Assembly: GCA_023134715.1 (NCBI GenBank)
Contig: JAGLUP010000002.1
Span: 143,906-207,905, forward strand
Source of the DNA: Candidatus Parcubacteria bacterium
Lineage (GTDB): Bacteria > Patescibacteriota > Minisyncoccia > Minisyncoccales > JAGLUP01
Direction: 5' to 3'
Length of the DNA stretch: 64,000 bases
The position numbers were made by a program, and so were the translations under genes. Positions 2,703-56,178 of this stretch are shown here, one piece after another (position 1 is the first letter of the stretch; each line of letters opens with the position of its first letter). The notes under the pieces were generated by a model. It was not told the origin of the DNA and made no database searches. It saw only the letters and a program-made list of their open reading frames with translations.

Positions 2703-2867
2703 AAAGATGGAAAGAAAAATTGAAAGTTATTTGAAAATTAAATTTACTCTGTTAAAGATCCATTTAACAGAGTAAAGCAAAATCTTGAGTTCAGTTTTTT
2801 AGAGTTGTTCCGACTCTAAATTATGCAACGTAAGTTGCAACTTTGAAAATTTTTTAAATTTTCATTT

Positions 2868-4380
<1,513 letters not shown>

Positions 4381-4968: not shown

Positions 4969-6341
4969 AAAGAACATTGATTATTGAAACAATAAAAAAT
5001 TCTGGAAAACAAGTAAAAATTTGCGGCTGGGTGAACTCCCGAAGAGACCATGGGAAAATTATTTTCATAGACCTAAGAGATAAAACAGGTTTAGTACAGG
5101 TTGTTCTTAGCAACAGTTTAGAATCAGCGCAAAATTTACGAGAAGAATGGGTTGTTGAAATAACAGGCAAAGTAAATGAAAGACCGAAAGGAATGGAAAA
5201 TTCAAAAGCTGAAACAGGAAAAATAGAAATTAAAGCTGAAAAATTAAAAATCCTGTCTGAAGCAAAAACTCTGCCTTTTGACATAAATACTGATGGTTAT
5301 AAAATAAATGAAGAAAAACGATTAAAATACCGTTATTTAGATTTAAGAAGGCATAGATTGAAAAAAAATCTGGAAATGCGGCATAGGGTTATTCAGTTTA
5401 TGAGAGAATTTTTAATCAAACAGGATTTTACTGAAGTTGAAACCCCGATATTAACTAAATCAACCCCGGAAGGAGCCAGAGATTTCTTAGTGCCGGCCCG
5501 ATTGCAGCCAGGAAAATTTTACGCGCTTCCTCAATCTCCGCAACAATATAAGCAACTTTTAATGGTTGCGGGACTGGAAAAATATTTTCAAATTGCCAGA
5601 TGTCTGAGAGACGAAGACCAAAGAGCTGACAGGCAGGCAGAACATACTCAATTAGATATTGAAATGTCTTTTGCTGACCAAGAAGATATTATGTCTTTAA
5701 TAGAACAATTATATATAGATTTAACAAGTAAATTATTTCCTCATAAAAAAATCCAAAAAATTCCTTTTCCTCGGATTACTTACAAGGAAGCGATTAAAAA
5801 ATATAAAACAGACAGGCCTGATTTAAGAAAGGACAAATCAAATCCTGATGAACTAGCTTTTGCCTTTATTACTGATTTTCCAATGTTCCAATATCATAAA
5901 AAAGATAAAAAGTGGGGAGCCGAGCATAATCCATTCACCCTCCCGCAAACCGACAATATCCAAAAAATCAAAAAAAATCCAAAAGATATTTTAGCATATC
6001 AATATGATATTGCTTTAAACGGCTATGAAATCGGCGGAGGAGGTTTGCGAACTACAAATTTAGATATTTTAACAGCTGTTTTTGAAATTTTAGGCCATAA
6101 GAAAAAAGACATAGAAAAAAACTTTGCTAATTACTTTAAAGCGTTTTCTTATGGCGTTCCTCCTCACGGAGGGATTGCCATGGGGATTGACAGATTTTTA
6201 ACTGTTGTTTTGAATGAGCCAAATATTAGAGAAGTAATTGCTTTTCCAAAGACAGGAGATAACCGCGACTTAATGATGGAAATTCCTTCAACAGTAGAAA
6301 AAAAACAACTTAAAGAACTGCATCTTAAAATTGATGAATAA
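4965..6341 (+). CDS. aspS: aspartate--tRNA ligase, bacterial-type core lacking the GAD insertion domain
   Basis: FYALPQSPQQYKQLLMVAG..YFQIARCLRDEDQRADRQAEHTQLDIEMSF (motif 2 region), GGGLR, and a class II motif 3 region (GIAMGIDR); only 458 aa. Confidence 0.9.
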   Translation: MKRTLIIETIKNSGKQVKICGWVNSRRDHGKIIFIDLRDKTGLVQVVLSNSLESAQNLREEWVVEITGKVNERPKGMENSKAETGKIEIKAEKLKILSEAKTLPFDINTDGYKINEEKRLKYRYLDLRRHRLKKNLEMRHRVIQFMREFLIKQDFTEVETPILTKSTPEGARDFLVPARLQPGKFYALPQSPQQYKQLLMVAGLEKYFQIARCLRDEDQRADRQAEHTQLDIEMSFADQEDIMSLIEQLYIDLTSKLFPHKKIQKIPFPRITYKEAIKKYKTDRPDLRKDKSNPDELAFAFITDFPMFQYHKKDKKWGAEHNPFTLPQTDNIQKIKKNPKDILAYQYDIALNGYEIGGGGLRTTNLDILTAVFEILGHKKKDIEKNFANYFKAFSYGVPPHGGIAMGIDRFLTVVLNEPNIREVIAFPKTGDNRDLMMEIPSTVEKKQLKELHLKIDE

Positions 6342-7344: not shown

Positions 7345-8394
7345 ATGATTTTTTCTTTTAGTCCCAATCTTACTTTTAATATAATAAGAATATTCTTTCT
7401 TACTGCTTTAAGCTCTGGCTTGGCAGTTCTTTTAACTCCGATTCTAACTCATTTCTTGTATAAATATAAACTTTGGAGAAAAGAAGCAAGAAAAAAAACA
7501 ATCACAGGAGATGAAGCAGTCGTCTTTTATAAGCTGCACAAAGAAAGAGAGGTCAGCACGCCTCGCGGAGGTGGAATTTTAATTTGGGCAACAACCTTAA
7601 TAATTATTTTGCTTTGCGCCTTGTCGCAAGAATTTAACTTTCTTTCTCGCGGACAAACTTGGCTTCCTTTTTTCGCCTTAATGGTTGGCTCAATCGTTGG
7701 TCTTTTTGACGACATTTTGCAGGTTTTTGGCAAGGGAAAATATGTTGCCGGAGGACTTAGCTTTAAACAACGGATGGCAGTAATAATTCTTATAGGTTTA
7801 ATCGGGGGAGCTTGGTGTTATTTTAAGCTCGGATGGGATACAATTCATATTCCTTTAATAGGAGATTTATTTATTGATTTTTGGTATATTCCTCTTTTTA
7901 TAATAGTAATGCTTGCTTCATGGTCCGGAGGAATAATTGACGGCATAGACGGCTTAGCCGGAGGAATTTTTGCTATTATGTTCGGCGCTTACGGAATAAT
8001 TGCTTTCTGGCAGGGACTTTTTGATTTAGCGGCTTTTTGCGCTGTAATAAGCGGAGCGATTCTGGCGTTTTTATGGTTTAATATTCCGCCAGCAAGATTT
8101 TATATGGGAGAAACAGGAACCATAGGGCTAACTTCAGCTTTGGCTGTGGTTGCCTTTTTAACTGATTCTGTGGCTGTCCTGCCAATAATTGCCGGGCTTT
8201 TAGTAATAGAATCCGGTTCTGTAATTTTACAACTTCTCTCTAAAAAATTCAGGAAGAAAAAAATCTGGCTCTGCACTCCGATTCATCACCATTTTGAAGC
8301 CAAGGGCTGGCCTCCGCACAAAGTAACAATGCGCTTCTGGCTGATTGGAATCATTTTGGCTATTCTCGGCGTTACCATAAGATTATTAGGATAA
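7345..8394 (+). CDS. mraY: phospho-N-acetylmuramoyl-pentapeptide transferase
   Basis: 349 aa polytopic; DDxxQV-like FDDILQVFGK, IIDGIDGLAGG, PIHHHFEAKGW. Confidence 0.9.
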   Translation: MIFSFSPNLTFNIIRIFFLTALSSGLAVLLTPILTHFLYKYKLWRKEARKKTITGDEAVVFYKLHKEREVSTPRGGGILIWATTLIIILLCALSQEFNFLSRGQTWLPFFALMVGSIVGLFDDILQVFGKGKYVAGGLSFKQRMAVIILIGLIGGAWCYFKLGWDTIHIPLIGDLFIDFWYIPLFIIVMLASWSGGIIDGIDGLAGGIFAIMFGAYGIIAFWQGLFDLAAFCAVISGAILAFLWFNIPPARFYMGETGTIGLTSALAVVAFLTDSVAVLPIIAGLLVIESGSVILQLLSKKFRKKKIWLCTPIHHHFEAKGWPPHKVTMRFWLIGIILAILGVTIRLLG

Positions 8395-8399
8395 AAAAA

Positions 8400-8433
8400 G
8401 GTTCAATTCCCGACGATCGCGGGAATTTGAACC
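8400..8433. repeat. CGATCG-centred palindromic element, copy 2 (acts as mraY terminator)
   Basis: aaaaaaag-gttcaattcccgacgatcgcgggaatttgaacc-ctttttt directly after the mraY stop. Confidence 0.75.
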
Positions 8434-8491
8434 CTTTTTTGATTCCGTAAAAATTTGGTCATTAGAGTGATTATTTAAATAAATTTAGCGT

Positions 8492-10539: not shown

Positions 10540-12003
10540 ATGGGTAAACTAATGAAAAATTATCTTTTCTTTCGGAAAAAATATCCTAAATTTGTTTATC
10601 AGGGATATTCATACAAAATAGCTAAAAATGATTTGCAAATTTCATTTGATTTTGCTATTAGACCGGATATTTTTTTTAAGCCAAAAGTAACTATAAAAAA
10701 TATTAATAAAAAAAAATTGGCGCTGATAGGGGAGAAGGCATTAAATAATTTAATTTTTCATTTGGGTTTGATAGAGCTTATCAGCTATTGGAAATCAACT
10801 TGTTCGCCAGAAATTGAAATTAAAGCTGGCCACCTGAATAAAGAACAAATTAAATGGTGGAAAGATTTAATTATAAATGGAATGGGCGAATTTTTTTATA
10901 AAAATAAAATTGATTTTACGCAAGTAAATTTCCTTAAAATAACATCAAAGCCCTCCATGCCCAATGTAACGAGAAGCGATCTCGTTACATTGAAAAAGAG
11001 GGTGATTGCGCCGATTGGGGGAGGAAAGGACTCAATAGTAACTATGGAGATTTTAAAAAAACAAGGAAAAGATATTAATTGCTTTTCTCTAAATCCGACT
11101 CAAACAGCAAAAAGAGTAATGAGAGTCGGCAATTGTAAAAACCCAATTATTGTCAATAGAAAAATTGACAAAAAACTTTTAGAATTAAACCAAAATGGCT
11201 ATCTTAACGGCCACACTCCTTTTTCAGCTTATTTGGCTTTTTTAAGCATATTTTGCGCTGTAATTTTTGATTATAAATATATTGCGTTTTCAAATGAAAG
11301 AAGCGCAAGCGAAGGAAATTTAAAATATTTAGGAAAAACAATTAATCATCAATATTCAAAAAGTTTTGAATTTGAGCAAAAATTCAGGGATTATTCAAAA
11401 AAATATTTAGCTAAAAACGCAGAATATTTTAGCTTTTTGCGGCCTTTATATGAAATCCAAATAGCAAAATTATTTTCTCAATTTCCTCAATATTTTCCTG
11501 TATTTTTAAGCTGTAACGAAGCGTATAAAACTAATTCCGGCAGAAAAAAACCAGAAAAAAAATGGTGCGGAAATTGCTCTAAGTGTTTATTTGTTTTTGC
11601 AATTTTATATCCTTTTGTTGAAGAGAAAAATTTAATTAAAATTTTTCGTAAAAATCTTTTTGAAAATAAAAAATTACTGCCAATAATGTTAGAACTAATA
11701 GGCCTGCCCGCATCCCGCAAAGACGGGAAGTCGTTGCAGGCGGGGGAGAGAAGATTTAAACCGTTTGAATGCGTGGGAACAAAAAAAGAATGCCTTATTG
11801 CTTTTTACCTTGCCCGCCGTAGCTTTAAGCGAAGGAGGGTTAACAAAAATCTTCCTTATCTTTTGAAATATTTTGAAAAGAAAATTTTGCCAAAACATCC
11901 CGAATTAGAAAAAGAATCAAAAAAAATAATGTGTTCATGGGATAAGCAAAACAATTTACCCAAAAATTTTAAAAAAATACTGAAAAAGATTGACAAAAAT
12001 TAA
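10540..12003 (+). CDS. PP-loop (GGGKDS) ATP-pyrophosphatase-superfamily protein with C-terminal CxxCxKC; function unknown (MurL-type epimerase is a hypothesis)
   Basis: APIGGGKDSIV resembles the SGGxDS PP-loop; WCGNCSKC Cys cluster as in QueC-like enzymes; 487 aa; carries two GC-rich repeat insertions. Confidence 0.45.
   Translation: MGKLMKNYLFFRKKYPKFVYQGYSYKIAKNDLQISFDFAIRPDIFFKPKVTIKNINKKKLALIGEKALNNLIFHLGLIELISYWKSTCSPEIEIKAGHLNKEQIKWWKDLIINGMGEFFYKNKIDFTQVNFLKITSKPSMPNVTRSDLVTLKKRVIAPIGGGKDSIVTMEILKKQGKDINCFSLNPTQTAKRVMRVGNCKNPIIVNRKIDKKLLELNQNGYLNGHTPFSAYLAFLSIFCAVIFDYKYIAFSNERSASEGNLKYLGKTINHQYSKSFEFEQKFRDYSKKYLAKNAEYFSFLRPLYEIQIAKLFSQFPQYFPVFLSCNEAYKTNSGRKKPEKKWCGNCSKCLFVFAILYPFVEEKNLIKIFRKNLFENKKLLPIMLELIGLPASRKDGKSLQAGERRFKPFECVGTKKECLIAFYLARRSFKRRRVNKNLPYLLKYFEKKILPKHPELEKESKKIMCSWDKQNNLPKNFKKILKKIDKN
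11701..11747. repeat. GC-rich hairpin element inserted in frame inside CDS 10540..12003
   Basis: ggcctgcccgcatcccgcaaagacgggaagtcgttgcaggcggggga; GC-rich island in AT-rich CDS; same hairpin family as 58111-58160 and 13985-14065. Confidence 0.6.
11808..11841. repeat. second GC-rich hairpin element inside CDS 10540..12003
   Basis: ccttgcccgccgtagctttaagcgaaggagggtt closely matches intergenic cttgcctcgccgaagtttaaacgaaggcgggtt (55925-55957) and ccctccatagttttaacgaaggaggg (55973-55998). Confidence 0.65.
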
Positions 12004-12076
12004 AAATGTAATAGTATAATAACAGATATAGATATATTATAGTCATTTTAAAATAAAATATAAAGAGGTGGAAAAA

Positions 12077-12376
12077 ATGGGATTAGGAGAAAAAGTAAAT
12101 GCGCGCGCTGAAGAGATGGTTGTAGAAGGTGAAAGGCAACGGCTAGATAAGAAACTCGATGGAGCAAGCTCTATTCAAGAAATAAGAACCGCTCTTTTAG
12201 AAGAATTGGTAAGATTAAAAAAATGGGGTTCTATTTTAGAAAAACAAAAACAAGAAAACAGGGAATACTTTGAAGAATTAGAAAAAAAGACAAAGGAATC
12301 AGGACAAAAAAATCAAGAAAGCACAAGGCAAATAATTGAAAGATTGCACACTCTTGTATTGAGAAACCCAATTTAA
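12077..12376 (+). CDS. hypothetical coiled-coil protein
   Basis: ORF track starts at GTG 12068, but GAGGTGG precedes ATG 12077; followed by a hairpin terminator (12378-12405). Confidence 0.4.
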   Translation: MGLGEKVNARAEEMVVEGERQRLDKKLDGASSIQEIRTALLEELVRLKKWGSILEKQKQENREYFEELEKKTKESGQKNQESTRQIIERLHTLVLRNPI

Positions 12377-12499
12377 AAAGGAGATAAAATCTCCTCTTTT
12401 TTTTGTTGAAAATCTATGCTATTTTGAATAAAAAAATAAACAAAACAATTTACCCAAAAATCTTTATTGTAAGGAGCTAAGCTCCTTACAATTTTGTAT

Positions 12500-12573
12500 T
12501 TGACAAACATGTTAAGTGGTTGTATTTTATAAGTAAGTAGCACTTATTAAAATAAAATATAAGGGTGATAAAA
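12500..12573 (+). promoter_or_regulatory. promoter plus leader cassette (copy 1) driving HMG-CoA reductase
   Basis: TTGACA-17 nt-TATTTT then ...aagtagcacttattaaaataaaatataagGGTGATAAAAATG; near-identical copy at 14198-14271. Confidence 0.65.
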
Positions 12574-13710
12574 ATGAAAGAAGTTGATATACGAAGAAAG
12601 GCAATAGAAGAACTTACAAATACCAATTTAAAAGGTATTGGAGATTTTTCAATAAGTCCAGATTCGGCTGATGGAAATATTGAAAACATGATTGGAGCAG
12701 TCCAAGTTCCAATAGGTATAGCCGGGCCCCTTAAAGTAAACGGTGAATTAGCCAAGGGAGAATATTATATTCCTTTGGCTACAACTGAAGGAGCGTTAGT
12801 AGCTAGTGTCAATCGAGGATGTTCAGTGATAACTGCTTCAAAGGGAGCCAATACTTGGGTTTTTAAAGATAAAATGACCAGAGCTCCAGCGATTAGAACG
12901 AAGGGCATAGCAGAAACAAAATTATTGCTGGATTGGATAAAATTAAATTTTGAACAAATTAAACAAAAGGCCGAAAAAACTACTCTGTTTGGTAAATTAA
13001 TACAAATTGTGCCGCATATAGCAGGAAATACTATTTTTCTTCGGTTTGAGTATACTACTGGGGACGCAATGGGTATGAATATGGTTACGATTGCCACTGA
13101 CGAAGCAGTTAAGCTTATTGCTGAAAAAACAAATACGGAACTCATTGCTTTATCGGGAAATATGTGCGCAGATAAAAAACCTGCATGGCTTAATTCAATT
13201 GAAGGCAGAGGGAAAAGTGTTGTGGTGGAAGTAATAATTCCAGAAAAATTAGTAAAATCAAAGTTAAAAACTACTCCATCTTCCTTTATAGAAGTAGTCC
13301 ATCGAAAAATTTCTATTGGTTCAGCTTTGGCAGGTTCCCTTGGTTTTAACGCACATGTGGCAAATGTAATAGCAGGAATTTTCATTGCTACTGGACAGGA
13401 TGCGGCTCATGTAGTAGAAGCAAGTAATGCCATCACTACCGCTGAAATAGTTCAAGGCAACAAATTGTATGTTTCTGTAACGCTGCCTTCTCTATTGGTA
13501 GGCACAATCGGCGGGGGAACCGGACTAAAAACTCAAAACGAATGTTTAAATATTTTAGGAGTAGCAGGAGGTGCTGATTTTCCCGGAGAAAACGCTAAAA
13601 AATTTGCTGAAATTGTAGCTGCCGCAGTTCTTGCTGGAGAAATTTCTTTAATTGCCGCTTTATCTACTGGTGATTTGGCAAAAGCCCACCAGAGATTAGC
13701 CCGCACATAA
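12574..13710 (+). CDS. hmgA: hydroxymethylglutaryl-CoA reductase, class I (short, soluble form)
   Basis: TTEGALVASVNRGC, TGDAMGMNMV, VGTIGGGT motifs; start moved from GTG 12565 to ATG 12574 (the GTG lies inside the SD-like GGTGAT). Confidence 0.85.
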   Translation: MKEVDIRRKAIEELTNTNLKGIGDFSISPDSADGNIENMIGAVQVPIGIAGPLKVNGELAKGEYYIPLATTEGALVASVNRGCSVITASKGANTWVFKDKMTRAPAIRTKGIAETKLLLDWIKLNFEQIKQKAEKTTLFGKLIQIVPHIAGNTIFLRFEYTTGDAMGMNMVTIATDEAVKLIAEKTNTELIALSGNMCADKKPAWLNSIEGRGKSVVVEVIIPEKLVKSKLKTTPSSFIEVVHRKISIGSALAGSLGFNAHVANVIAGIFIATGQDAAHVVEASNAITTAEIVQGNKLYVSVTLPSLLVGTIGGGTGLKTQNECLNILGVAGGADFPGENAKKFAEIVAAAVLAGEISLIAALSTGDLAKAHQRLART

Positions 13711-13799
13711 CGAGCGAAAAAATCGCTCGTTTTTTTTATTGAAAATTTGTGTTATTTTAAATAAAAAAATAAATAAAACAATCTACCTAAAAATCTTGA

Positions 13800-14153
13800 A
13801 AAAATGTTAAGAAAAAAAGTGTTTTCTAATCCACATATCAAATACGACACAAATACCACTGCTACATAGCAGTAGTATTTGTGTCCCCTTTGTCGTTCAG
13901 TTCGCAAGTCATTCATCAATGAGTCAATATTTTTACAAACGACCTGCGGCCGCAGATGATTTATAAACTCGAGATTCTTCGCCTGCCTCGCCCGCATTGC
14001 TACGCCAGCCCGACAGCCTGACGGCAGTCATGGCGGCGGGCAAAACGTTGCGGGCGGGCTGGCTCAGAATGACAAAGGGACGCTCAGAATGACGTCTCCC
14101 TTGTTATTGCGAGGAGCGACTGAAAGGAACGACACGACAATCTTCGAAAAAAA
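13800..14153. repeat. non-coding cluster of GC-rich palindromic repeat elements
   Basis: hairpin gacacaaataccactgcta-ca-tagcagtagtatttgtgtc; ctgcggccgcag; reverse-oriented copies of the gtcattctgagc...gaagaatct element (agattcttcgcctgc, ggctcagaatgac x2); gcgaggagcgac...; sits exactly where the paralogous locus at 12465-12499 has only a 33-bp palindrome. Confidence 0.7.
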
Positions 14154-14187
14154 GGTTCAACTTTCAACGATCGCGGGGATTTGAACC
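14154..14187. repeat. CGATCG-centred palindromic element, copy 3
   Basis: ggttcaactttcaacgatcgcggggatttgaacc with A-run/T-run flanks. Confidence 0.7.
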
Positions 14188-14197
14188 CTTTTATAAT

Positions 14198-14271
14198 TTG
14201 ACAAATAGGTTAAATAGTTGTATTTTATAGGCAAGTAGCACATATTAAAATAAAATATAAGGGTGATAAAA
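14198..14271 (+). promoter_or_regulatory. promoter plus leader cassette (copy 2)
   Basis: TTGACA-17 nt-TATTTT and the same leader and GGGTGATAAAAATG as 12500-12573. Confidence 0.65.
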
Positions 14272-14700
14272 ATGGAAGAAAATAATGAAGGAAAAATCAA
14301 GGAAGACGCTGGAAAAATAACTGAGGGCAAAAGGACAAACTATTTTATTCCCGTATTAATAGTATTGTCGTTTAGCAGTTTTATAGTTTCTTTAGGGTTG
14401 CTACAAGATATTTTTCTATCTTTAGGAACAGCTTTATTTGTTTTTACACTATTTTTCTTCGGACCAATGAGTTTGTTAGTAATAGAAATAGCTAATAAGC
14501 ATTTTTTCGAAAGGAATGAAAAAGAATGGACAAAGATAACTAAAGAAGAGTTTTGTATGACAGCTGTGTGGGATGGAATATTTCTTCTCTTGTTTATTGC
14601 GAGTGGTTTTAATTTCTGGTTTTTCATACTTTTTATAATTGCGTTTATTGTTTTCCGTTATATATTTTTTAGTGCGTTTGTGATATTAGGAGATAATTAG
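14272..14700 (+). CDS. hypothetical integral membrane protein
   Basis: four hydrophobic segments; start taken at ATG 14272 after GGTGATAAAA. Confidence 0.5.
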   Translation: MEENNEGKIKEDAGKITEGKRTNYFIPVLIVLSFSSFIVSLGLLQDIFLSLGTALFVFTLFFFGPMSLLVIEIANKHFFERNEKEWTKITKEEFCMTAVWDGIFLLLFIASGFNFWFFILFIIAFIVFRYIFFSAFVILGDN

Positions 14701-14742
14701 CAATAATGAATTTATGGAACCAAAAAAAACAAGGTGATAAAA

Positions 14743-14961
14743 ATGACAGAAAATACTGAAAAAGATAAAAAAAGGGAAATTAGAAAAAAAGAACTTAAAC
14801 AAGAATTTAAGCATATACTTGAGGAAATCAACAAGAATGAAGAAGAGGCAACGCCGCGAAGCCCTGAGAATATGTTTAAGGAGGCGTTAAGATTAGTTGA
14901 TTGGCTTGGTAGAAAATGGAGAATTGAAGATTATCAGGAAAAAATCGGTATAAAATATTAA
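14743..14961 (+). CDS. hypothetical small charged protein
   Basis: 72 aa after AAGGTGATAAAAATG; hairpin terminator follows (about 14971-14998). Confidence 0.4.
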   Translation: MTENTEKDKKREIRKKELKQEFKHILEEINKNEEEATPRSPENMFKEALRLVDWLGRKWRIEDYQEKIGIKY

Positions 14962-15033
14962 TTATAAAAAATAAGAGCGATAAAAAGCTCTTTTTATTTT
15001 GATTTTTAAACTATTTTAGATTATTATAAAGAA

Positions 15034-16428
15034 ATGAAGTTAAATAAATTAGAAAATAAAAAAATTCTGGTTTTAGGATTGGGGAGAGAGGGGATAGACA
15101 CGCTCAAGTTTTTGAGGAAATTATTTCCTGAAAAAATCTTAGGAGTGGCGGATGAGTCAGAAATTAAAAAACTGAACAAGCCCGCCCAAATTTTGCTAAA
15201 AGCAAAAATTGTGGCGGGCAGGAAAATTAAAACTCATTTTGGGAAAAATTATCTCAAGACGCTTAAAGATTACGATGTAATAATTAAATCGCCTGGAATT
15301 CCGACAAAAAAGATAGAGCCGTTTTTAAAAAACAAACAGGACTTAACTTCTCAGACAGAAATCTTTTTTGAAAATTGTCCGAGTAAAATTATAGGAATTA
15401 CCGGCACTAAAGGAAAAAGCACTACCGCTTCTTTGATTTATCAGATATTAAAAGCAGGGAAAATAAAAACTCACCCCTTTAAATCCTTTCCGGCTAGCCG
15501 AAAAGGAATTTCGCCAAAGGAGAAATTATTTAACAGGGTGAACTTAATAGGAAATATTGGCACGCCAGTTTTATCTTATTTAAAAAACGCCAAGAAAAAT
15601 GATATTTTTGTCTATGAACTTTCCTGCCATCAACTGCAAAACCTTAAAAAATCACCGCATATTGCGGTATTATTGAATATATACCCAGAACACTTGGATT
15701 ATTACAAAAACTTCCAGGATTACATAAACGCAAAGGCAAACATTACAAAATATCAGACCAAGCAGGATTATTTGATTTATAACTCGCGAAATAAAATTGT
15801 TTCTAAAATTGCGAAAAATTCTAAGGCAAAAAAAATTCCTATCCCTACGAATTTACGAATATTTACGAATATACGAATTACGAATACGATTCCGGAAGAA
15901 AACATAATGGCAGCCGTTGCTATCGGAAAAATATTTAAAGTTCCAGAAAAAATTATTAAAAAAGCTATAAATAACTTTAAATCTCTCGCTCATAGATTAG
16001 AATTTATCGGAGAATTCAAGAAAATAAGATTTTACAATGACTCCTTATCAACCATTCCCGAAGCCACGATTGAGGCCTTAAATTTTTTGGGAAATGACGC
16101 GCAAACTTTAATCTTAGGCGGATATGATAGGGGACTGGACTTTAAAAATTTAGGCGAAAGAATTAAAAAAAGCAAAATAGAAACTCTGATTTTATTCCCC
16201 GAAACCGGCAGAAGAATTTGGAAAGAAATCAAAAAAAACAATAAAAATAATTTTTTAAAGCACTTTTTCGTTTATGATATGAAAGAAGCTATAAAATTGG
16301 CATATAAAAATACTGACAAGGGAAAAATATGTTTGCTTTCTCCTGCTTCTCCGAGTTTTGGAATTTTCAAAGATTACAAAGAAAGAGGAGATTTATTCAA
16401 AAAATATGTAAGGGCTGACTCGCGATGA
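15034..16428 (+). CDS. murD: UDP-N-acetylmuramoylalanine--glutamate ligase with two repeat-derived insertions
   Basis: GLGREG N-terminal Rossmann, [12 protein letters not shown]-loop, GNIGTP, Mur ligase C-terminal region; position upstream of ftsW-murG. Confidence 0.85.
15472..15540. repeat. 69-nt palindromic element inserted in frame in murD
   Basis: outer stem caccc...gggtg enclosing tcctttccggcta/tagccgaaaagga and aatttc...gaaatt hairpins; encodes about 23 extra residues ([24 protein letters not shown], approximate boundaries) between the P-loop helix and GNIG. Confidence 0.65.
15847..15888. repeat. interrupted TACGAAT tandem repeat (5 copies) inside murD
   Basis: tacgaat-t-tacgaat-att-tacgaat-a-tacgaat-tacgaat, translated as [14 protein letters not shown]. 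Confidence 0.8.
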
Positions 16429-16439
16429 CAATCCTTTAT

Positions 16440-16502
16440 GTCATTCTGAGCCAGCAGGCGAAGAATCTATAATACGAGATTCTTCACTTCGTTCAGAATG
16501 AC
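16440..16502. repeat. GC-rich inverted-repeat element (GTCATTCTGAGC...GAAGAATCT type)
   Basis: gtcattctgagccagcaggcgaagaatct-ataatacg-agattcttcacttcgttcagaatgac; a second imperfect IR lies at about 16548-16622. Confidence 0.75.
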
Positions 16503-16650
16503 AAGAGGAGACACTCATAGAAAACGCAGGAAACTGAATTTTAAAAGCGAAAATTCTAGGGTTTTCTGAGACGCGTCGGAGCCCTTTAGGGTAAAGCGCG
16601 AAGAAAATCCAGAATTTGAGCTAGAAAAATTTTTATGCTATAATTAAAAA

Positions 16651-17730
16651 ATGAAAGCTCGTCCTGATTACATTTTGCTTGGCATATCAATTATTTTAGT
16701 ATTCTTAGGAATGTTGGTATTAGCCACTGTTTCCGCGCCATTTTCCTTAGAAAAACACGGGACAACTACTTATTTCCTGTTTCATCAAATAATTTACGCT
16801 TTAATTCCCGGCATAATTCTCGGATTTACAGCATTCAAGCTTCCCTTATCTTTTATTAAAAAAAATGCCTTCAATTTTCTTTTAATAAATTTAATATTTT
16901 TAGCTCTTGTTTTCCTGCCCAAAATTGGTTTAAATTCAGGCGGAGCGGCCCGCTGGATAAGCTTGGGCCCGATTTCTTTCCAGCCATCAGAACTTTTAAA
17001 ACCCTTTTTCATACTTTACTTAGCGGCCTGGCTTGCCCGCCCAAGTTTTTCTAAAAAAAACTTCCTTCCATTTTTAATAATTATAGGACTTCTAAGTTTA
17101 TTTTTGATCCTTCAGCCAGATATAAGCACTTTAGGAATAATTGTTTTAACTGCCAGCTTAATGTATTTTTCCGCTAATACGCCTATTTTACAAAGCGTAT
17201 TTATAGTTTTAGGCGGCATAGGGTCTTTATTTCTTTTAATAAAAATAGCTCCATACAGATTAAATCGTATCTTAGTTTTTCTCAAACCAGAAATTGACCC
17301 TCTTGGAATAGGATATCAAATGAAACAGGCCTTAATCGCAGTAGGGTCAGGAGGTCTGCTCGGCGTAGGACTGGGAATGAGTCATCAGAAATTCGGATTT
17401 CTGCCCCAATCAATTGGAGATTCAATATTTGCTATATTTGCAGAAGAAACAGGATTTATGGGAAGCTTGCTCTTAATTCTTCTTTTTTTAGGATTTGCTT
17501 GGCAAGGCCTGAAGATTGCAAAATCTTCAAATGATGCATTTCTTCGGCTTGCTGCGTTAGGAATCAGCTCTTGGATTGTAATCCAGGGATTTATAAACAT
17601 CAGCTCAATGCTTAGAATTTTTCCTCTTACCGGCATTCCTTTGCCTTTTATCAGCTATGGAGGATCGCATTTAATCGCTGAATTAATTGGAATAGGGATA
17701 CTACTCAATATCTCAAAACAAAAACCATGA
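16651..17730 (+). CDS. ftsW: SEDS-family peptidoglycan glycosyltransferase (FtsW/RodA)
   Basis: 359 aa, about 10 TM segments, RWISLGPISFQPSE and GDSIFAI..EE.G motifs; dcw context. Confidence 0.85.
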   Translation: MKARPDYILLGISIILVFLGMLVLATVSAPFSLEKHGTTTYFLFHQIIYALIPGIILGFTAFKLPLSFIKKNAFNFLLINLIFLALVFLPKIGLNSGGAARWISLGPISFQPSELLKPFFILYLAAWLARPSFSKKNFLPFLIIIGLLSLFLILQPDISTLGIIVLTASLMYFSANTPILQSVFIVLGGIGSLFLLIKIAPYRLNRILVFLKPEIDPLGIGYQMKQALIAVGSGGLLGVGLGMSHQKFGFLPQSIGDSIFAIFAEETGFMGSLLLILLFLGFAWQGLKIAKSSNDAFLRLAALGISSWIVIQGFINISSMLRIFPLTGIPLPFISYGGSHLIAELIGIGILLNISKQKP

Positions 17731-33616: not shown

Positions 33617-34468
33617 CTATTCTATTATTTCAGATTCACACCCATTTTTTAGCTCTCGATTCTGTATCTTGTCACAGATAGATGAATTTGGTTTATCAAG
33701 AATAGCGTTCAAATAACATTCGTCTTTCGTATATTGATCTTGTATCTTGTCACAGATAGATGAATCTCTTTTAGCTACAGCGACATTCCTATAACACATA
33801 TCTTTAGAAAGTTGCTCTTCGTCTACTTTGTCACAGATAGATGAATCCTGTTTAGCTATAGCAACTTCCATATAACAAAAACTTTTTCCAAACTGATCTT
33901 TTATCTTCTTTTCACAAATAGATGGATCTCTTTTGCCAGAAGCGACGCCACAATAACAGACATCTTTTATCCTTTGATCTTGCATCTTTTCACAAACAGA
34001 CAGATCTGCCAAGTTTTCAAAGCAATTCCAATAGCACTTATCGATCATTGTCTGATCTTTTATCTTCTCACAAATAGAAAAATCTTTTTTAACTTTAGCT
34101 ATCTCTGAATAGCAAGAATCTTTAAATGATTGATGCAGTTTTTCACAAATTGACAGATCTTGTTTAATTATAGCAACATTCGAATAACAAAAATCTCTGT
34201 TAAATTTATCTTCTATTTTTTTACAAATAGATAAATCTTTTTTGGTCATAGCAACATCCGTATAATAATAAATATAACAAAGGTCTCTTTCCCTTGAACT
34301 CTGCATTTTACCACATATATTTTGAATTTCAGTTTCAGTAAGTGGAAGCAATTTTTTATTTTTTTCTATTGTGTCAATAAAAATAGCCCCGCAAATTATT
34401 AAAATAGCAACTATTCCAATTATTATCAAAAAAACAACTCTTTTTGATTTTGAAAAATAAATATTCAT
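33617..34468 (-). CDS. membrane-anchored protein made of about 8 tandem Cys-containing repeats of about 31 aa
   Basis: N-terminal TM then repeated D.CY..VA..K.D.SIC.KI.D units (e.g. FCYSNVAIIKQDLSICEKL, MCYRNVAVAKRDSSICDKI). Confidence 0.6.
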   Translation of the reverse strand: MNIYFSKSKRVVFLIIIGIVAILIICGAIFIDTIEKNKKLLPLTETEIQNICGKMQSSRERDLCYIYYYTDVAMTKKDLSICKKIEDKFNRDFCYSNVAIIKQDLSICEKLHQSFKDSCYSEIAKVKKDFSICEKIKDQTMIDKCYWNCFENLADLSVCEKMQDQRIKDVCYCGVASGKRDPSICEKKIKDQFGKSFCYMEVAIAKQDSSICDKVDEEQLSKDMCYRNVAVAKRDSSICDKIQDQYTKDECYLNAILDKPNSSICDKIQNRELKNGCESEIIE

Positions 34469-50926: not shown

Positions 50927-51142
50927 TTACTGTATTTTTCTTTTAACTCCTTCGTTACCCAAATAATCAAAATACATAGGCATAAGTTTTCTATATAATG
51001 AAGAAGCGAATTGTTTATTTGGAAAAAGTATTTTCTTAAATCTATTTTCTTCAATCAAAAAATCCACGAGCATTTTATAATCTCCATCTCCAGAAACAAG
51101 AACTATTTTATCAAATGGTTCTTTTTTGTATAATTTTTTCAT
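50927..51142 (-). pseudogene. C-terminal fragment of an NYN/LabA-like (DUF88) protein
   Basis: IVLVSGDGDYKMLVDFL matches the end of NYN domains; only 71 aa. Confidence 0.45.
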
Positions 51143-51220
51143 TACATTAAAAAACCGCTTTTACTGAAAGGCGGAGGCGGGGGTGTTATAGTTTACACTG
51201 AGGAGCGAAGCGACGAAGTG

Positions 51221-51294
51221 TGCGCTCGGAGGGGATCGAACCCCCGACCATCGGCTTAAAAGGCCGCTGCTCTACCTAACTGAGCTACGAGCGC
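51221..51294 (-). tRNA. tRNA-Lys (anticodon UUU), CCA not encoded
   Basis: GCGCTCG-TA-GCTC-AGTTAGGTA-GAGC-A-GCGGC-CTTTTAA-GCCGA-TGGTC-GGGGG-TTCGATC-CCCTC-CGAGCGC-A folds as a 74-nt cloverleaf with one 27:43 mismatch. Confidence 0.85.
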
Positions 51295-51313
51295 AAGTGC
51301 CGCGAATCAGCGG

Positions 51314-52390
51314 CTATATTCCTTCTTTCTTTAATTGCTCTAAAAGTTGTTTTTGATTTTTGCTTAATTTTTGCGGTGTCTGGATAACCAGCTCTACATA
51401 CATACTTCCTCTTCCCCAGCCGGAAAAATGAGGAATTCCTTTTCGAGAAAGCCGTAAAACTTTTCCTGATTCAGTTCCATCAGGAATTTTTAACTCAATT
51501 TTCTTGCCTTCTAAGCTTGGTATTTCAATCTTGTCTCCCAAACATGCCTGTGAAAAACTAATAGGAGCGCTATGATAAATATCATCGCCGCTTCTTTTGA
51601 ACGCCGAATGTTTTTTAACTAAAATTCTGATATATAAATCGCCGGGATTGCCGCCTCTTTTTCCCGCTTCTCCTTCGCCTGTGATTTTAATTACCTGATT
51701 TGTGTCAACTCCGGCTGGAATAGAAATTCTAATTTCTTTATCTTTTTTAATTCTTCCTTCGCCCTTGCAGACATTACAAAGTTTTTCAGGTTTAGTCCCC
51801 TCTCCTTTACATTCCGGACAAGTAGTATATCTCTGGAAAGAGCCCAAAAATGTTTTTTTAATTTGCTGGACCTCTCCGGCGCCTCTACAGGTAAAACATT
51901 CTTTGACAGAAGAGCCGGGCTCAGCTCCGCTTCCCTGACATCTGTCGCAAACAGCTGCTTTATACAAAGAAACTTTCTTTTCTTTGCCTGTTAAAACATC
52001 TTCAAGCGTAATTTGTATATCAACCTGAATGTCCTGGCCTCTTTTAATATTCTTTTTTCTTGCCTGGTCTCCACTGAAAAAACTTCCAAAAATTTCTCCT
52101 AAATCTCCCATATCAAATTCTACGCCTTGGCCAGCTCCTTGGCCAAAACCAAATCCAGCAGCGCCCGGGTCAAATCCCCCGGCTTGGCCCTCAAAAACTC
52201 TGCCAAATTGATCATATTGCGCTCGCTTCTGCTTACTGGAAAGAACCTGATACGCTTCATTAAGCTCTTTAAATTTTTTCTCATCTCCTCCTTTGTCTGG
52301 ATGATATTTATGAGCTAATTTACGGTAGGCCTTTTTTATGTCTTGTTCTGAAGCGTCGCGAGCAACGCCTAATGTTTGATAATAATCCAT
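51314..52390 (-). CDS. dnaJ: molecular chaperone DnaJ
   Basis: J domain with HPD, G/F region, four CxxCxGxG repeats. Confidence 0.95.
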
Positions 52391-52498
52391 AATGAAATTG
52401 AAAATGAAAAGCGAAAAAAGAAAAACTACAATCTAAAATCTAAAATTTAATCTTTTTTAATTTTTATCTGTCGTTTTTCATTTTTAGTTTTCAGTTTT
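52391..52498. repeat. AT-rich palindromic intergenic element, copy C (between dnaK and dnaJ)
   Basis: gaaaatgaaaagcgaaaaaagaaaaactacaatctaaaatctaaaat...tcttttttaattttt...gtttttcatttttagttttcagtttttcattt. Confidence 0.7.
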
Positions 52499-54397
52499 TC
52501 ATTTTTCTTTGTATTCTCCTTCTTCCGGCTTTTTTTCCTCATCTTCTGGCTTTTTTTCTTCAGGTTTTTTTTCAGATTCTGGCTTTTTTTCCTCCGTCTG
52601 TTTATACATTTCTGTTCCGATTTTTTGAATCGCCTCGGATAATTCTGATGTCTTGCTCTTTATATCCTCTATATTATCACCATCTTTAACCTGTTTCAAG
52701 TTCTCTATTTTTTCTTCAATTTCTTTTTTGGAGTCAGCGGAAACCTTGTCTCCTGCGTCTTTAATGGTTTTTTCAGTGGTATAAACCAAACTGTTAGCCA
52801 TATTTTTTGCTTCAATTAATTCCTGCTTTTTTTTATCGTCTTCTTTATGAAGCTCCGCGTCTTTTTTCATTTTCTCCACTTCTTCTTTTGATACGCCGGA
52901 AGAACCCTCAATTCTAATTGACTGGGTTTTGCCGCTCGCCTTATCTTTAGCAGACACTTCTAGAATTCCATTAGCGTCAATATCAAAACTTACTTCAATC
53001 TGGGGAACTCCGCGAGGAGCCGGAGGAATGCCGTCTAAAATAAATCTTCCTAATGTCTTGTTATCGCTTGCCATTGGTCTTTCGCCTTGAAGCACATGGA
53101 CTTCTACTGAAGGTTGATTCTCGGCCGCGGTAGAAAAAACTTGTGTTTCAGCCGCTGGAACAGTGGTATTTTTGGAAATTAAAATTGTATTTACACTGCC
53201 TAATGTTTCAATTCCCAAAGAAAGAGGAGTTACATCTAAAAGTAAAACATCTTTCACGCTTCCTTGTAAAATGCCGGCCTGGACAGCGGCTCCGACAGCT
53301 ACCACTTCGTCTGGATTAATTTCTTTATTCGCTTCTTTTCCAAAAAGATTTTTAATCTCTTCCTGAATTTTAGGCATTCTTGTCTGCCCGCCGACTAAAA
53401 TTATTTCCTTAATATCTTTGGCTTCCATATCCGCCTCTTTCAAGGCCTGCTTAGTAAGTTCAATAGATTTATCAATATAATCTTTGACTAAATTCTCAAA
53501 TTCAGCCCTTGCTAATTTATAAAGAAGATGTTTTGGTCCGGCGCTGTCTGAAGTGACAAAAGGAATATTAATTTCGCTTTCTAAGGTAGTTGATAATTCA
53601 ATTTTTGCTTTTTCAGCCGCTTCTTTTAATCGCTGTAAAGCTAAATTATCTTTAGATAAATCAATGCCTTGGTCTTGTTTAAATTTATCTACAAGCCAAT
53701 CAATTATTTTTTGGTCAAAATCATCCCCGCCTAAATGACTATTCCCGCCTGTGGCTTTTACCTCTACTGTGTCCTCGCTTACATCTAAGACAGAAATATC
53801 AAAAGTTCCTCCGCCAAAATCATAGACAACGATTTTTTGCTCGCCTTTTTTTGTCAAACCGTAAGCCAACGCGGCCGCAGTCGGCTCGTTGATTACCCTT
53901 CTAACTTTAAATCCAGCGATTTCTCCCGCTATTTTCGTCGCTTTTCTTTGAGAATCATCAAAATAAGCCGGGCAGGTAATAATTGCTTCTTCAATTTTTT
54001 CTCCTAATTTTTCTTCTGCGTCGCTTTTTAATTTTTGCAAAATCATTGCTGAAATCTCAACCGGCTTATGCCATTTATCTCCCATTTTAACTTCAACCCC
54101 GCCATCAGACGCTTCTTTAAGCTCATAAGGCAATAGTTTTTTATCTTTCTGAACTTCTTTATCAGAAAAACGATGGCCTATTAATCGTTTTATAGAGAAG
54201 ATAGTATTTTCAGGATTAGTTATTTGCTGTCTTCGCGCTAAAATTCCCACCAATCGCTCTTGATTTTTTGTTAACGCTACAATAGACGGAGTGGTTCTGG
54301 CTCCTTCTTTATTTTCAATTATTTTTGGTTCTCCAGCTTCAACAACAGCCATAGCTGAAAAAGTTGTGCCTAAATCAATGCCTAATATTTTTGACAT
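52499..54397 (-). CDS. dnaK: molecular chaperone DnaK
   Basis: [15 protein letters not shown], full Hsp70 architecture; 632 aa with a KPEE-rich tail. Confidence 0.97.
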
Positions 54398-54481
54398 AAT
54401 TAAAAAAATTTCTAATTTCTAATTCTTAATTTTTAAACATTTAAAATTAGAAATTTAAAATTTAAAATTAATCTATTGAAT

Positions 54482-54775
54482 TTATTTATCTTCTCCTGCG
54501 AATCCGATTTTTTGTTCCGGGACTGCTGTTGCTTCTATTTTACCAAATTGCTCTTCATATCTTCCTAAATTTTCCTGCAACGCGCTAATCATTCTTTTCA
54601 AATGGGCAGGATTCATAATGACTCTGGAATTCAAAATTCCATTTGGAGGCGATACTAAGAAAAAATCTAAAATAAATTCATCTTTAGTATGCAAAATCTG
54701 CATTAAATTTGAATAAACTCCTCTTAAATCTTCGTCTCTGACTTTAATTTTTATTTCTCTTTTTTGCTGTTCCAT
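54482..54775 (-). CDS. DUF3467-family protein
   Basis: GVYSNLMQILHTKDEFILDFF......V.MNP.H.KR....L..N...YE..FG.I. Confidence 0.6.
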   Translation of the reverse strand: MEQQKREIKIKVRDEDLRGVYSNLMQILHTKDEFILDFFLVSPPNGILNSRVIMNPAHLKRMISALQENLGRYEEQFGKIEATAVPEQKIGFAGEDK

Positions 54776-54796
54776 AACTTTAAATTGTTATATTGT

Positions 54797-55294
54797 TTAT
54801 TTCGCGACCTTGACTTTGGCAGGTCTGATGACCTTGCCTTTTAAAATATATCCTTTTTCAATTTCTTCTATAATTATATCCGAATCTTTATCTTTTGCTT
54901 CAGCTTGTTCTACTGCTTCATGAAAATTTGGGTCAAACTCTTTTTCGCTTGTTTCAATTTCCTCTATTCCTTGTGTTTTTAAAAATTCTTGAAATTGATT
55001 TTTGATTTTTAACAACCCGTCCACATCAGCATTATTTTTTAAATCCTCTGATACTTTACTTTCAGCTAAATAAAAATTATCTAAAATTGGCAAAATTTTT
55101 AAAATAAACTCTCTTTGAACATAATCTAAAATTTCTTTAGCTCTCTCTGCCTCTTCTTTTTTATAATTTGAAAAATCAGCTTGCGCTCTTTGCCAGCCAG
55201 CCAGATACTCATCTCTTAATTTCTCGCATCCTTCTAATTTTTGCTTGAAATCTGTTTGTTTCTGAACTTTTTTTTCTTTTTTCTTCTTTTCCAT
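54797..55294 (-). CDS. grpE: nucleotide exchange factor GrpE
   Basis: RAQADFSNYKKE.....E......L..ILP.LDN; C-terminal FDPNFHEAV......G.VIRPAKV. Confidence 0.9.
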   Translation of the reverse strand: MEKKKKEKKVQKQTDFKQKLEGCEKLRDEYLAGWQRAQADFSNYKKEEAERAKEILDYVQREFILKILPILDNFYLAESKVSEDLKNNADVDGLLKIKNQFQEFLKTQGIEEIETSEKEFDPNFHEAVEQAEAKDKDSDIIIEEIEKGYILKGKVIRPAKVKVAK

Positions 55295-55312
55295 AATCTA
55301 AAATATATTCTA

Positions 55313-55341
55313 ATTATATAAAATAAATAGACAAAAGTCAA
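55313..55341 (-). promoter_or_regulatory. putative promoter of the grpE-dnaK-dnaJ operon
   Basis: minus-sense TTGACT (55336-55341), 17 nt, TATAAT (55313-55318); no CIRCE-like inverted repeat seen. Confidence 0.5.
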
Positions 55342-55472
55342 ATCCGATAGTAAAACAAAAAACCCACAGAGCTAAGCTCCGCAGGTTTTTTGTTTATTTC
55401 TATTCACCTTTTTCCAACCCACAAACTTTTTTATGAGCTCGAAAAAATAAGAAAGAGAAAAAAATTTCTTTT

Positions 55473-55766
55473 CTACCTTGCCCTTAGGAATTCAGGGGTA
55501 AGGTAATCTTTAACATAGTCGGTTAAATCATTGGCGATATCAATTAAAATATGATAGTCCTTCTCTTCTTGATATTTCTCTACGGCCTCAAGTATAACCT
55601 GCTTAACCATTCCATGGCTATGTCCAATTTCTTCAAGTATCCGAGCAGCCATTGCAGTGGCTTCGGTATCCTTCTCTTCAAAAAGTGAATCCACTAGACA
55701 TTTCTGTAGTTCACTGATGTTTTTTTCCTTATTTGCTTTACTTATCCGTACAAAAATATTTGTCAT
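55473..55766 (-). CDS. hypothetical protein (cargo of cassette-array module 1)
   Basis: 97-aa ORF with GGAGGT 7 nt upstream; no motif recognised. Confidence 0.4.
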   Translation of the reverse strand: MTNIFVRISKANKEKNISELQKCLVDSLFEEKDTEATAMAARILEEIGHSHGMVKQVILEAVEKYQEEKDYHILIDIANDLTDYVKDYLTPEFLRAR

Positions 55767-55792
55767 TGTTTTTACCTCCGCAGGAATAATGT

Positions 55793-56143: not shown

Positions 56144-56178
56144 AAAATTAGATTAAAAAATAATTTAGTTTTAAATTT

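Follow-up and report, generated by a model that had tools for sequence, protein, structure and literature searches.

The window analysed here, a stretch of 64,000 nucleotides from a Candidatus Parcubacteria bacterium, contains several families of short GC-rich nested-palindromic repeats, and copies of these repeats stand in frame within two of its peptidoglycan genes, murD and murL. The repeats are best understood as behaving like non-autonomous selfish DNA, the in-frame gene copies included, a reading to which a probability of about 0.68 is given. Such in-frame palindromic colonisation, resembling that by the Rickettsia palindromic elements (RPEs), is apparently new for this lineage, as is the cross-phylum element family involved. 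An earlier note on this DNA, made from its letters alone, was not aware of such behaviour having been reported for this kind of genome, and the literature on terminal sequences and on palindromic elements or miniature transposable elements with inverted repeats (MITEs) in the candidate phyla radiation (CPR)/Patescibacteria yielded no description of it.

The murD element and its family

15471-15541, plus strand: three-way-junction palindromic element in murD, a 69-nt nested palindrome with about 23 extra residues
2741-2778, no strand assigned: stem-only relative in the 16S rRNA leader, TTTACTCTGTTAAA-GATCCA-TTTAACAGAGTAAA

The murD element consists of an outer stem (TCACCCCTTTAAAT / ATTTAACAGGGTGA) and two inner hairpins (CCTTTCCGGC-TA-GCCGAAAAGG and AATTTCGCC-AAA-GGAGAAATT), and the segment 15465-15548 folds as a three-way junction (−24.1 kcal/mol, z=−3.9); the boundaries of the element are ambiguous. 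The proposal that it adds about 23 residues between the P-loop helix and GNIG is borne out, as MurD residues 143-169, lying after the P-loop helix and before the L(I/V)GNIG strand, are unmatched in the alignment to MurDs of the PDB. About 30 of the 45 close MurD homologues are without the segment and possess instead a native linker that is short, G(G/K)(L/I)K(A/V/T)H, so its presence is lineage-specific. In the AlphaFold model of the window MurD, built on an alignment of the 45 homologues (mean predicted local distance difference test score (pLDDT) of 82, predicted TM score of 0.81), a pLDDT below 50 is seen solely at residues 149-172, which are the insert. This is the only low-confidence loop of the model, and it is consistent with a tolerated surface loop, the location that the earlier note had suggested looking for.

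Members of the murD-type family share an outer stem of 14-17 bp (TTCACCCYGTTAAAT / ATTTAACRGGGTRAA), which closes two inner hairpins of differing sequence. The formal similarity between intragenic and intergenic copies, put forward earlier as a decisive comparison, was recovered with a covariance model, R1, which had been built from 22 intergenic copies of other genomes only and was searched with filters off: the murD copy (15468-15544) scores 48.7 bits (E=2.6e-10). The stem-only relative in the 16S rRNA leader scores 32.6 bits (E ~4e-6) and differs from the family consensus by a compensated change of C-G to T-A; nothing further was retrieved by R1 in the 64-kb window. Across the loci of other genomes (labelled L, while the MurD and MurL homologues compared are labelled P), R1 recovered the pattern matches together with extra divergent copies.

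An exact-pattern scan of 185,579 species-representative genomes (GTDB, one per species) gave at least 120 stretches, of which fewer than about 10 are matches by chance on our own estimate, the scan being biased by the pattern used. Among the matches listed, 43 are from Patescibacteria, 24 from WOR-3/Stahlbacteria, 16 from Desulfobacterota, 8 from Bacteroidota and 6 from Omnitrophota; the remaining ones comprise 6 labelled Gammaproteobacteria, 5 from other phyla and 12 unclassified. The Desulfobacterota matches include closed or multi-Mb contigs and a single-cell genome, and several genomes hold five or more copies of the element. The interior consists of exactly two adjacent hairpins in 81 of 130 unique copies. 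A WOR-3 subfamily (e.g. L014, L017, L021, L102) has the same 14-nt termini around a conserved 42-nt interior devoid of hairpins. The flanks of this subfamily are also conserved (ACAGAT/.../GAACCACAGAG), and many copies are present per genome.

Conservation of the structure by compensatory changes is evident from the 149 aligned matches, in which 97.2% of the cells are paired, as compared to 75.9% after shuffling and 33-52% in slid controls. Two-sided changes occur at all 13 inner-helix pairs (800 cells vs 226 ± 14 in shuffles), while the sequence of the outer helix is nearly invariant across the alignment. One outer-stem position usually has C on one arm and A on the other. This asymmetry, taken at first for a family-wide feature, is partly ascertainment, since the search pattern required TCACCC; heterogeneity is seen among the 7 copies whose discovery did not depend on the pattern. 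The strand reading TTCACCC...GGGTAAA, with the C.A mismatch, is the sense strand in 39 cases vs 16 (30 vs 6 with a stricter pattern). The interior flips in orientation relative to the arms, which by inference is the expected product of recombination between inverted arms.

Copies within other genes

About 20-25 of 136 copies lie within long open reading frames (ORFs), and nearly all of them are read as xHPVK...(L)FNRV. The host genes, as judged by inspection of the sequences, include those for GatA, KsgA, CysRS, ribosomal protein L18, DNA polymerase I (PolA), the FtsZ linker, EF-G, PGK, RecG, LeuRS, HolB and glycosyltransferases. In the EF-G of L097, a 30-residue element segment takes the place of one residue of Thermus thermophilus EF-G, just before the DTPGH motif. 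Coding copies are biased in length: the pattern length is 2 mod 3 in 20 of 25 of them, as compared to 47 of 108 non-coding copies (Fisher p=0.0015), and with this length the HPVK and FNRV arm frames join and the host frame is kept. As read from the sequence, the other reading frames of the element hold TAA or TGA stops. The copies in coding sequence of the window likewise keep the frame and hold no stop codons, as had been claimed for them. A search of a 5.8-billion-protein set with concatenated insert peptides returned 10 candidates, a number too small to inform on the diversity of host proteins.

Turnover at the murD site

Other Parcubacteria MurDs carry related inserts at the same site, e.g. 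LKVHPVKSRKAGISPKTKLFNRVN, and the MurD homologue of L004 contains a second copy of the element in another loop. In L004 the three-way-junction element is located inside a TACGAAT(T) tandem repeat, which is present as coding sequence in the window murD (15846-15889); homologues have NYEFITNIRI in that loop. In L129 (P0007), the right arm GAATTTAACAGGGTAAAT alone remains at the murD site, where it encodes FNRVN in place of the native linker; a solo-arm remnant is also present in P0008. The full, short single-hairpin (HPVKFASQxFNRVN) and solo-arm forms are spread over at least 7 branches of the MurD neighbour-joining tree.

Other MurD and MurL homologues (P0009, P0146, P0225, P0105, P0119, P0048) have other recurrent GC-rich insert peptides, among them PEG(I/K)P(L)SA(G)SYGAS, found in both MurD and MurL, as well as KILKQVQNDKK, PACWQAG and SATSLRPSGSARV. 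In-frame hairpin inserts thus look common in the clade.

The murL segments

11703-11744, plus strand: type b palindrome in murL, CCTGCCCGCA...TGCAGGCGGG, a 42-nt in-frame insertion adding 14 amino acids, LPASRKDGKSLQAG
11808-11841, plus strand: type c hairpin-coding segment in murL, GCCCGCC-GTAGCTTTAAGCGAA-GGAGGGT, encoding ARRSFKRRRV
10950-11003, plus strand: further hairpin-coding segment in the variable linker of murL, 13-bp stem CAATGTAACGAGA/TCTCGTTACATTG with flanks GCCCTC/GAGGGT, encoding PNVTRSDLVTL
15180-15219, plus strand: further palindrome in the N-terminal domain of murD, GCCCGCCCAAATTTTGC-TAAAA-GCAAAAATTGTGGCGGGC, coding, in a length-variable loop

The coding sequence 10540-12003, previously labelled a PP-loop protein, is MurL, all of its homologues having the Pfam domains PF26299/PF26298 (MurL_N, MurL_epimerase_C). 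In the alternative MurD2/MurL route, by which the D-Glu residue of peptidoglycan is made, MurL serves as the epimerase (PMC8788868, PMC5808125). Both the MurD and the MurL genes are full length and retain every invariant residue.

Two insertions had been proposed in this gene, and one of them stands as an exact insertion of 42 nt. The LPASRKDGKSLQAG segment is missing from all 37 MurL homologues aligned, and the filled site, ATAGG(CCTGCCCGC...GCAGGCGGG)GGAGAGA, corresponds to an empty site, ATAGG/GGAGAGA, in the closest relative, L130 (79% identity); the 'ER' which follows LPASRKDGKSLQAG is native MurL sequence. Comparison of the filled and empty sites discloses no target-site duplication beyond a G ambiguity of 1-2 nt. 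Both 10-nt termini of the insertion are shared with the intergenic copy at 58127-58162 and with copies in other Patescibacteria, which extends the similarity between intragenic and intergenic copies to type b.

The second proposed insertion, ARRSFKRRRV, is a replacement of a segment of similar length, being 2 amino acids longer than in L130 and of the same length as in many other homologues. On the MurL neighbour-joining tree, A(L/R)RSFKRRRV as a hairpin-coding variant turns up in at least 6 separate places, and it is patchy among the homologues; the sister sequences of its carriers have the AT-rich SLKKFKSENKN or SWKKYRGQTS. The variant may have originated by replacement, conversion or recombination. 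Folded in isolation, the two murL segments are unexceptional (z=−1.7 for 11703-11744 and −0.8 for 11808-11841); hence the support for them comes from the repeat statistics and the comparison of orthologues.

The original list of hairpins was incomplete, as 10950-11003 in murL and 15180-15219 in murD had been overlooked. A stem scan with at most one mismatch missed the intragenic hairpins, and a sliding-window scan of minimum free energy recovered them. A 70-nt fold at murL 10950-11003 reaches −28 kcal/mol as compared to a window mean of −8.2 (SD 5.0), and the fold at murD 15180-15219 reaches −27 kcal/mol. The peptide NVTR(S/K)D(L/F)VT is common to P0129, P0133, P0146 and P0225 and is not present in the closest relative, P0122; at the murD position, 3-4 extra residues are common to only some homologues. 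Both segments lie in length-variable loops and are patchy across homologues.

Hairpin families of the window

16440-16502, no strand assigned: type a element made up of two hairpin units in inverted orientation, GTCATTCTGAGC..GAAGAATCT and AGATTCTTC..TCAGAATGAC
13968-14140, no strand assigned: composite intergenic block of three parts, delimited by sequence reading, fold and motif matches
13968-14075, minus strand: composite part 1, a type a unit in which a GC-rich b-like hairpin is nested
14082-14093, minus strand: composite part 2, a partial type a unit
14101-14140, plus strand: composite part 3, a GTTATTGCGAGG...CGACAATC unit
51197-51219, plus strand: hairpin unit with the apical motif GAGGAGCGAAGCGACGAAG conserved and a different closing stem (ACACT/AGTGT), adjoining the 3' end of tRNA-Lys
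58127-58162, minus strand: intergenic type b copy, CCTGCCCGCAATGCTTCGCATAACGATGCAGGCGGG
55925-55957 and 55973-55998, plus strand: two intergenic type c hairpins, recognised by loop motif and fold

The GC-rich hairpins reported earlier all exist at or near the positions given for them, as evident from sequence and folds, in a window of about 32% GC. Their recurrence is non-random. They were regarded as variants of one repeat family, and here the data show several distinct families or modules, type b being at the same time nested in type a. The type a motif GTCATTCTGAGC occurs in exact or near-exact form at 14062, 14082, 16440 and 16491; at up to 2 mismatches, 7 occurrences are observed vs 2.7 expected, a number reached in only 1 of 100 shuffles. 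The type a element at 16440-16502 begins 12 nt past the murD stop codon, and the fold of this inverted pair (16430-16512) has a free energy of −38.2 kcal/mol with z=−7.7. The minus strand of 13960-14105 folds with z=−6.4. As read from the sequence, the type a unit is a small hairpin consisting of an ATTC/GAAT stem, of G.A pairs in tandem and of an inner stem. Hammerhead-like cores were looked for in type a units by reading the sequence and were rejected, the core motifs being absent.

In unrelated loci totalling 0.9 Mb, 29 units of the form GTCATTGCGAG...GAAGCAATC were counted, and their arrangement as inverted pairs is common. The 19-nt apical motif GAGGAGCGAAGCGACGAAG recurs at position 5022 of L087, within a GTCATTCTGAGG...GAAGAATC unit, and a type a pair is found within the 23S rRNA gene of the same locus, its counterpart being an intergenic copy in L013. 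This Doudnabacteria 23S gene (L087 2278-6459) measures 4182 nt against a model of 2925 nt, so that insertions are present; one of them (5022-5228) is the type a palindromic pair and matches L013 1953-2020.

The type b pattern CCTGCCCGCA-N-TGCAGGCGGG has 2 matches in the window (11703-11744, plus strand; 58127-58162, minus strand) with 0 expected. L027 and L041 also contain type b, and L121 and L123 hold copies related to it; type b modules are nested within type a units at 13968-14075 of the window and in L027 and L041. The type c loop motif TTTAA(N)CGAAGGNGGG has 3 window matches (11824, 55939, 55984) with 0.01 expected; it was seen in the window only and not in the 0.9 Mb of other-genome loci. 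The hairpin at 55973-55998 resembles an intrinsic terminator, since a T8 run follows its GC-rich stem.

Genes and further repeats of the window

The gene order is murL (10540-12003), a small ORF, HMG-CoA reductase (12565-13710), 2 small ORFs, murD (15034-16428), ftsW, murG and gltX. The HMG-CoA reductase gene and the small ORFs thus stand between murL and murD within 10540-16428; in the relatives L001 and L129, murL is immediately upstream of murD, and the closest relative has them at separate loci. The window also contains a bacterial 16S rRNA gene at 2866-4379 and a tRNA-Lys gene at 51220-51294 on the minus strand. The window MurD is 100% identical to an NCBI protein of 'Candidatus Parcubacteria bacterium', and contig DAOVJQ010000001.1 of GCA_030673145.1, 238,596 bp in length, matches window positions 51111-64000 at 100% identity. 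Exact-protein look-ups with the window MurD and the ORF 1341-2012 gave no match.

Several further repeats were recorded. A hairpin family termed type d, TTCTrGrkTTTTCTGA...GCGCGAAGAAAATyCAGA, occupies 16551-16620 between the type a element and the ftsW promoter, and a relative of it is found at L131 20151-20220, about 7.3 kb past the end of the window. The intergenic hairpin repeat AAAAAAAGGTTCAAyTTyCrACGATCGCGGrrAkTTGAACCC (family D11) is present at 302-353, 8393-8444 and 14147-14198. A 40-nt perfect palindrome, GTATAACACATATACmACGATCGkGGTATATGTGTTATAC, occurs twice (62626-62665 and 63429-63468) with a spacing of about 800 nt. Two long hairpins (55793-55888 and 56959-57012) share the arms (C/T)ATTCTCCTGC(C/T)G(A/G)TTG ... 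CAATCAGCAGGAGAAT(G/A) and adjoin small toxin-antitoxin-like genes (HicA/HicB and HigB/YafQ-like, according to the gene table of L131). Intergenic modules running from terminator to promoter/leader are duplicated with 84-85% identity (12383-12464/13716-13797 and 12498-12598/14196-14296; D10, D14, D17), and the start context AAAATATAAGGGTGATAAAAATG is used three times. The minus-strand ORF 33668-34300 has 6 coding copies of a periodic 78-81 nt repeat (D1), which are 62-71% identical to the reference copy.

Search for a known family, a vector or mobility genes

Rfam 15 returned only rRNA and tRNA matches for the whole window and for 16 element-bearing loci, and a permissive Rfam scan of 13700-16700 gave chance-level matches only. 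The search of loci for kilobase-scale elements with the same arms turned up extra divergent copies. A scan of the IMG/VR viral contigs with the element pattern gave 1 match, hence no sign of a phage vector. An association with rRNA operons, suggested by the window, L061 and L087, was rejected as rRNA is present in only 2 of 120 loci, which is about background. In integron attC sites the boxes GTTRRRY and RYYYAAC follow a set order; reading of the sequences places these boxes in the opposite order in the elements, and the attC identity was rejected. The arm TGTTAAAT may resemble the XerD arm of the Escherichia coli dif site; a scan of the window for dif-like sites gave 36 matches vs 25 expected and is uninformative in AT-rich DNA.

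Nature and spread of the elements

On the explanation favoured, the elements would land, or be copied, in coding sequence as well as in intergenic DNA and the spacers of rRNA operons, and those in essential genes would persist only where the frame is kept, the frame read is free of stops and the site is a tolerant surface loop. The murD element, read as xHPxK...FNRV, would be a 69-nt member of a widespread three-way-junction family, and the murL element a 42-nt simple nested hairpin. Most likely, the two inserts are transcribed and then translated into additional loop residues that are disordered. The data show repeat family membership, a structure conserved through compensatory changes, lineage-specific presence with an exact empty site for murL, the frame bias of coding copies and the predicted loop location in MurD; mobility and selfishness, translation of the inserts, and spread by transposition or copying are inferred.

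Several observations weigh against this explanation. The window holds no more than one full and one stem-only copy of the murD type, the covariation alignment was fitted to model R1, and the genome scan carries the bias of its exact pattern. Conservation of the outer stem across phyla and the 39 vs 16 bias in orientation could indicate a function rather than pure selfishness. The ARRSFKRRRV hairpin, as a same-length replacement, is not accounted for by simple insertion. The 150 ORFs nearest to the copies show no enrichment of a transposase or recombinase (Pfam gave housekeeping families only), a search of 0.9 Mb of loci disclosed no kilobase-scale autonomous element bearing the same termini, and no transposition event was observed. 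The flanks of murD-type copies show no direct repeats, and the flank profiles of 130 copies extend the palindrome. Furthermore, several separate lineages have the murD site occupied, and this calls for a hot spot, for precise loss on repeated occasions, or for homologous recombination that spreads the allele.

That the sequence of the outer stem is strongly conserved from phylum to phylum suggests that a conserved trans-acting protein recognises it. Tentatively, the murD-type element may even represent a class of mobile or copied DNA that spans phyla and has not been described before, its spread depending on recognition of the stem by a conserved protein, of the host or trans-acting; this is possible, and is put forward with low confidence. 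The candidate spreader would be a tyrosine recombinase, or an HUH enzyme acting on a single-stranded DNA hairpin. Pointing toward an unusual mechanism are the 14-nt termini, constant from Patescibacteria to Desulfobacterota, WOR-3 and Bacteroidota, the free evolution of the inner hairpins, and the lack of a target-site duplication and of a linked transposase.

It is unlikely that the murD-type element is a functional structured motif, serving in RNA processing, stability or regulation or as a protein site on single-stranded or cruciform DNA, with coding copies as by-products or regulators. An outer stem conserved across more than 10 phyla with covarying inner helices, the prevalence of TTCACCC...GGGTAAA as the sense strand (39 vs 16, or 30 vs 6), the copies in rRNA leaders or spacers of the window, L061 and L087, and the want of a linked transposase would all suit such a motif. 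However, it has no Rfam match, rRNA operons are not enriched (2 of 120 loci), and in-frame copies sit in about 20 unrelated housekeeping genes, with patchy presence at the murD site among orthologues. The interior flips freely relative to the arms, and the sense-strand stem has a C.A mismatch rather than the G.U wobble expected of a selected RNA helix, an arm asymmetry which is itself partly ascertainment of the search pattern.

Allele exchange offers a second account, in which the murD and murL sites recur as occupied because related Parcubacteria recombine homologously, or because a single ancient insertion has since decayed, and the elements may no longer be mobile in this genome. The highly conserved flanks (TKGKSTT...GNIG), the same short variant HPVKFASQxFNRVN in 4-5 separate branches, the solo-arm remnant of P0007 and P0008, and the single full copy in 64 kb are in keeping with it. 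Such exchange nevertheless leaves unexplained how the elements came to be dispersed, in many phyla, over about 20 unrelated genes and over intergenic sites numbering more than 100. It is compatible with selfish spread as a secondary process, and as a full alternative it is quite improbable.

It is very improbable that the elements are removed or skipped before a protein is made, by RNA excision at the stem base and ligation or by translational bypassing. The rRNA genes of CPR bacteria are known for intervening sequences, and the 'byp' elements of yeast mitochondria are a case of translational bypassing. The compact and stable stem-junction, the near-native sequence that excision would restore, and the type a element inside a 23S gene speak for this route. 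However, coding copies are enriched for frame-preserving length (20/25 vs 47/108, p=0.0015) and are read in the one stop-free frame, and neither property would be needed if the elements were removed; Rfam also gave no match to a ribozyme or intron family.

Ordinary lineage-specific loop expansion of MurD and MurL under protein-level selection, with incidental palindromic DNA, is hardly credible: the loops at both positions vary in length and carry other inserts in other homologues, and the genes are full length with all invariant residues, but the same DNA element and termini recur in intergenic DNA and unrelated proteins, the murL insert shares its termini with an intergenic copy, pairing is kept by compensatory changes while the encoded interior peptide varies, the insert is predicted to be disordered, and the match of the intergenic-only model R1 to the murD copy largely refutes the idea.

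Significance

In-frame palindromic colonisation of essential genes is best known from Rickettsia. If it holds in CPR/Patescibacteria, it would be a general outcome of genome reduction and AT bias and not a Rickettsia quirk, and it would account for many lineage-specific insertions and 'hypothetical' motifs (HPVKS...FNRV, SFKRRRV, NVTRKDFVT, QNDK) in CPR proteins and metagenomic ORF catalogues. It bears on gene calling, on marker-protein alignment and phylogeny, and on structure prediction in uncultured lineages. Conservation of the termini across phyla suggests widely shared recognition machinery, and were the elements indeed a cross-phylum mobile class, they would be a major source of new loops in essential CPR proteins (EF-G, FtsZ, aminoacyl-tRNA synthetases, Mur ligases). 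The covariance model R1 makes a genome-wide census feasible.

Comparison with known systems

The type c hairpin at 55973-55998 shares with intrinsic terminators a GC-rich stem followed by T8, and intergenic copies often lie between co-directional genes. Unlike terminators, the murD-type element has an A-rich and not U-rich 3' flank, and the copies in coding sequence are without a T-run; the ordinary terminators of this region are simpler hairpins. The window copies, in frame and free of stops, also differ from byp-like or intron-like elements, which interrupt the frame or bring in stops.

Mitochondrial GC clusters, double-hairpin elements and repetitive hairpin elements (RHEs) are analogous in that GC-rich hairpins invade an AT-rich compact genome, including rRNA and coding sequence; yeast and Allomyces mitochondria provide GC-cluster and double-hairpin cases. 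The RHEs of sponge mitochondria are a further example (PMC2800124). These elements belong to another domain of life and bear no sequence relationship to those described here, so that the likeness is one of analogy only.

The repetitive extragenic palindromic sequences (REPs) and bacterial interspersed mosaic elements, with their RAYT/TnpA-REP transposases, resemble the present elements as short GC-rich imperfect palindromes in pairs or clusters with no target-site duplication and with an orientation bias. REPs are extragenic by definition, being palindromes of 20-40 nt next to which a GTAG or CGTC tag stands, in genomes with a RAYT gene (PMC3733652). Some of the present elements, by contrast, lie within genes, and the murD type ends in TTCACCC without such a tag; no Y1 transposase gene was found among its neighbours.

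Bacterial MITEs (Nezha, ERIC, Correia) are likewise small, with terminal inverted repeats, dispersed copies and occasional in-frame intragenic copies (PMC10969869). Terminal inverted repeats are represented here by the near-invariant 14-17 bp murD-type arms and by type a as inverted pairs. Unlike MITEs, the elements have no detected target-site duplication. In the 0.9 Mb of loci searched, no parent insertion sequence with the same termini turned up. Termini conserved across phyla are unusual among MITE families.

The closest parallel is with the RPEs, which are about 100-150 bp long, form about ten families and are confined to Rickettsia (PMC10969869). The elements here measure 42-69 nt and occur in Parcubacteria, in other Patescibacteria and in many further phyla, and in the murD type, unlike in RPEs, two covarying hairpins are closed by a conserved terminal stem of 14-17 bp; the likening is by description. 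In both systems, palindromic repeats reside in non-coding DNA and, in frame, in many unrelated housekeeping genes, where they add peptide segments at fold-compatible positions (PMC10969869), and in both the host has a reduced genome. Stable hairpins in multiple copies are evident here from z-values of −3.9 to −7.7, from covariation and from the 120 or more stretches elsewhere, and in-frame copies besides non-coding ones are found in murD, murL and about 20 other housekeeping genes. The comparison made by the earlier note thus agrees with the published description of RPEs (PMC10969869), and 'RPE-like' refers to behaviour only, as length, host and architecture differ.

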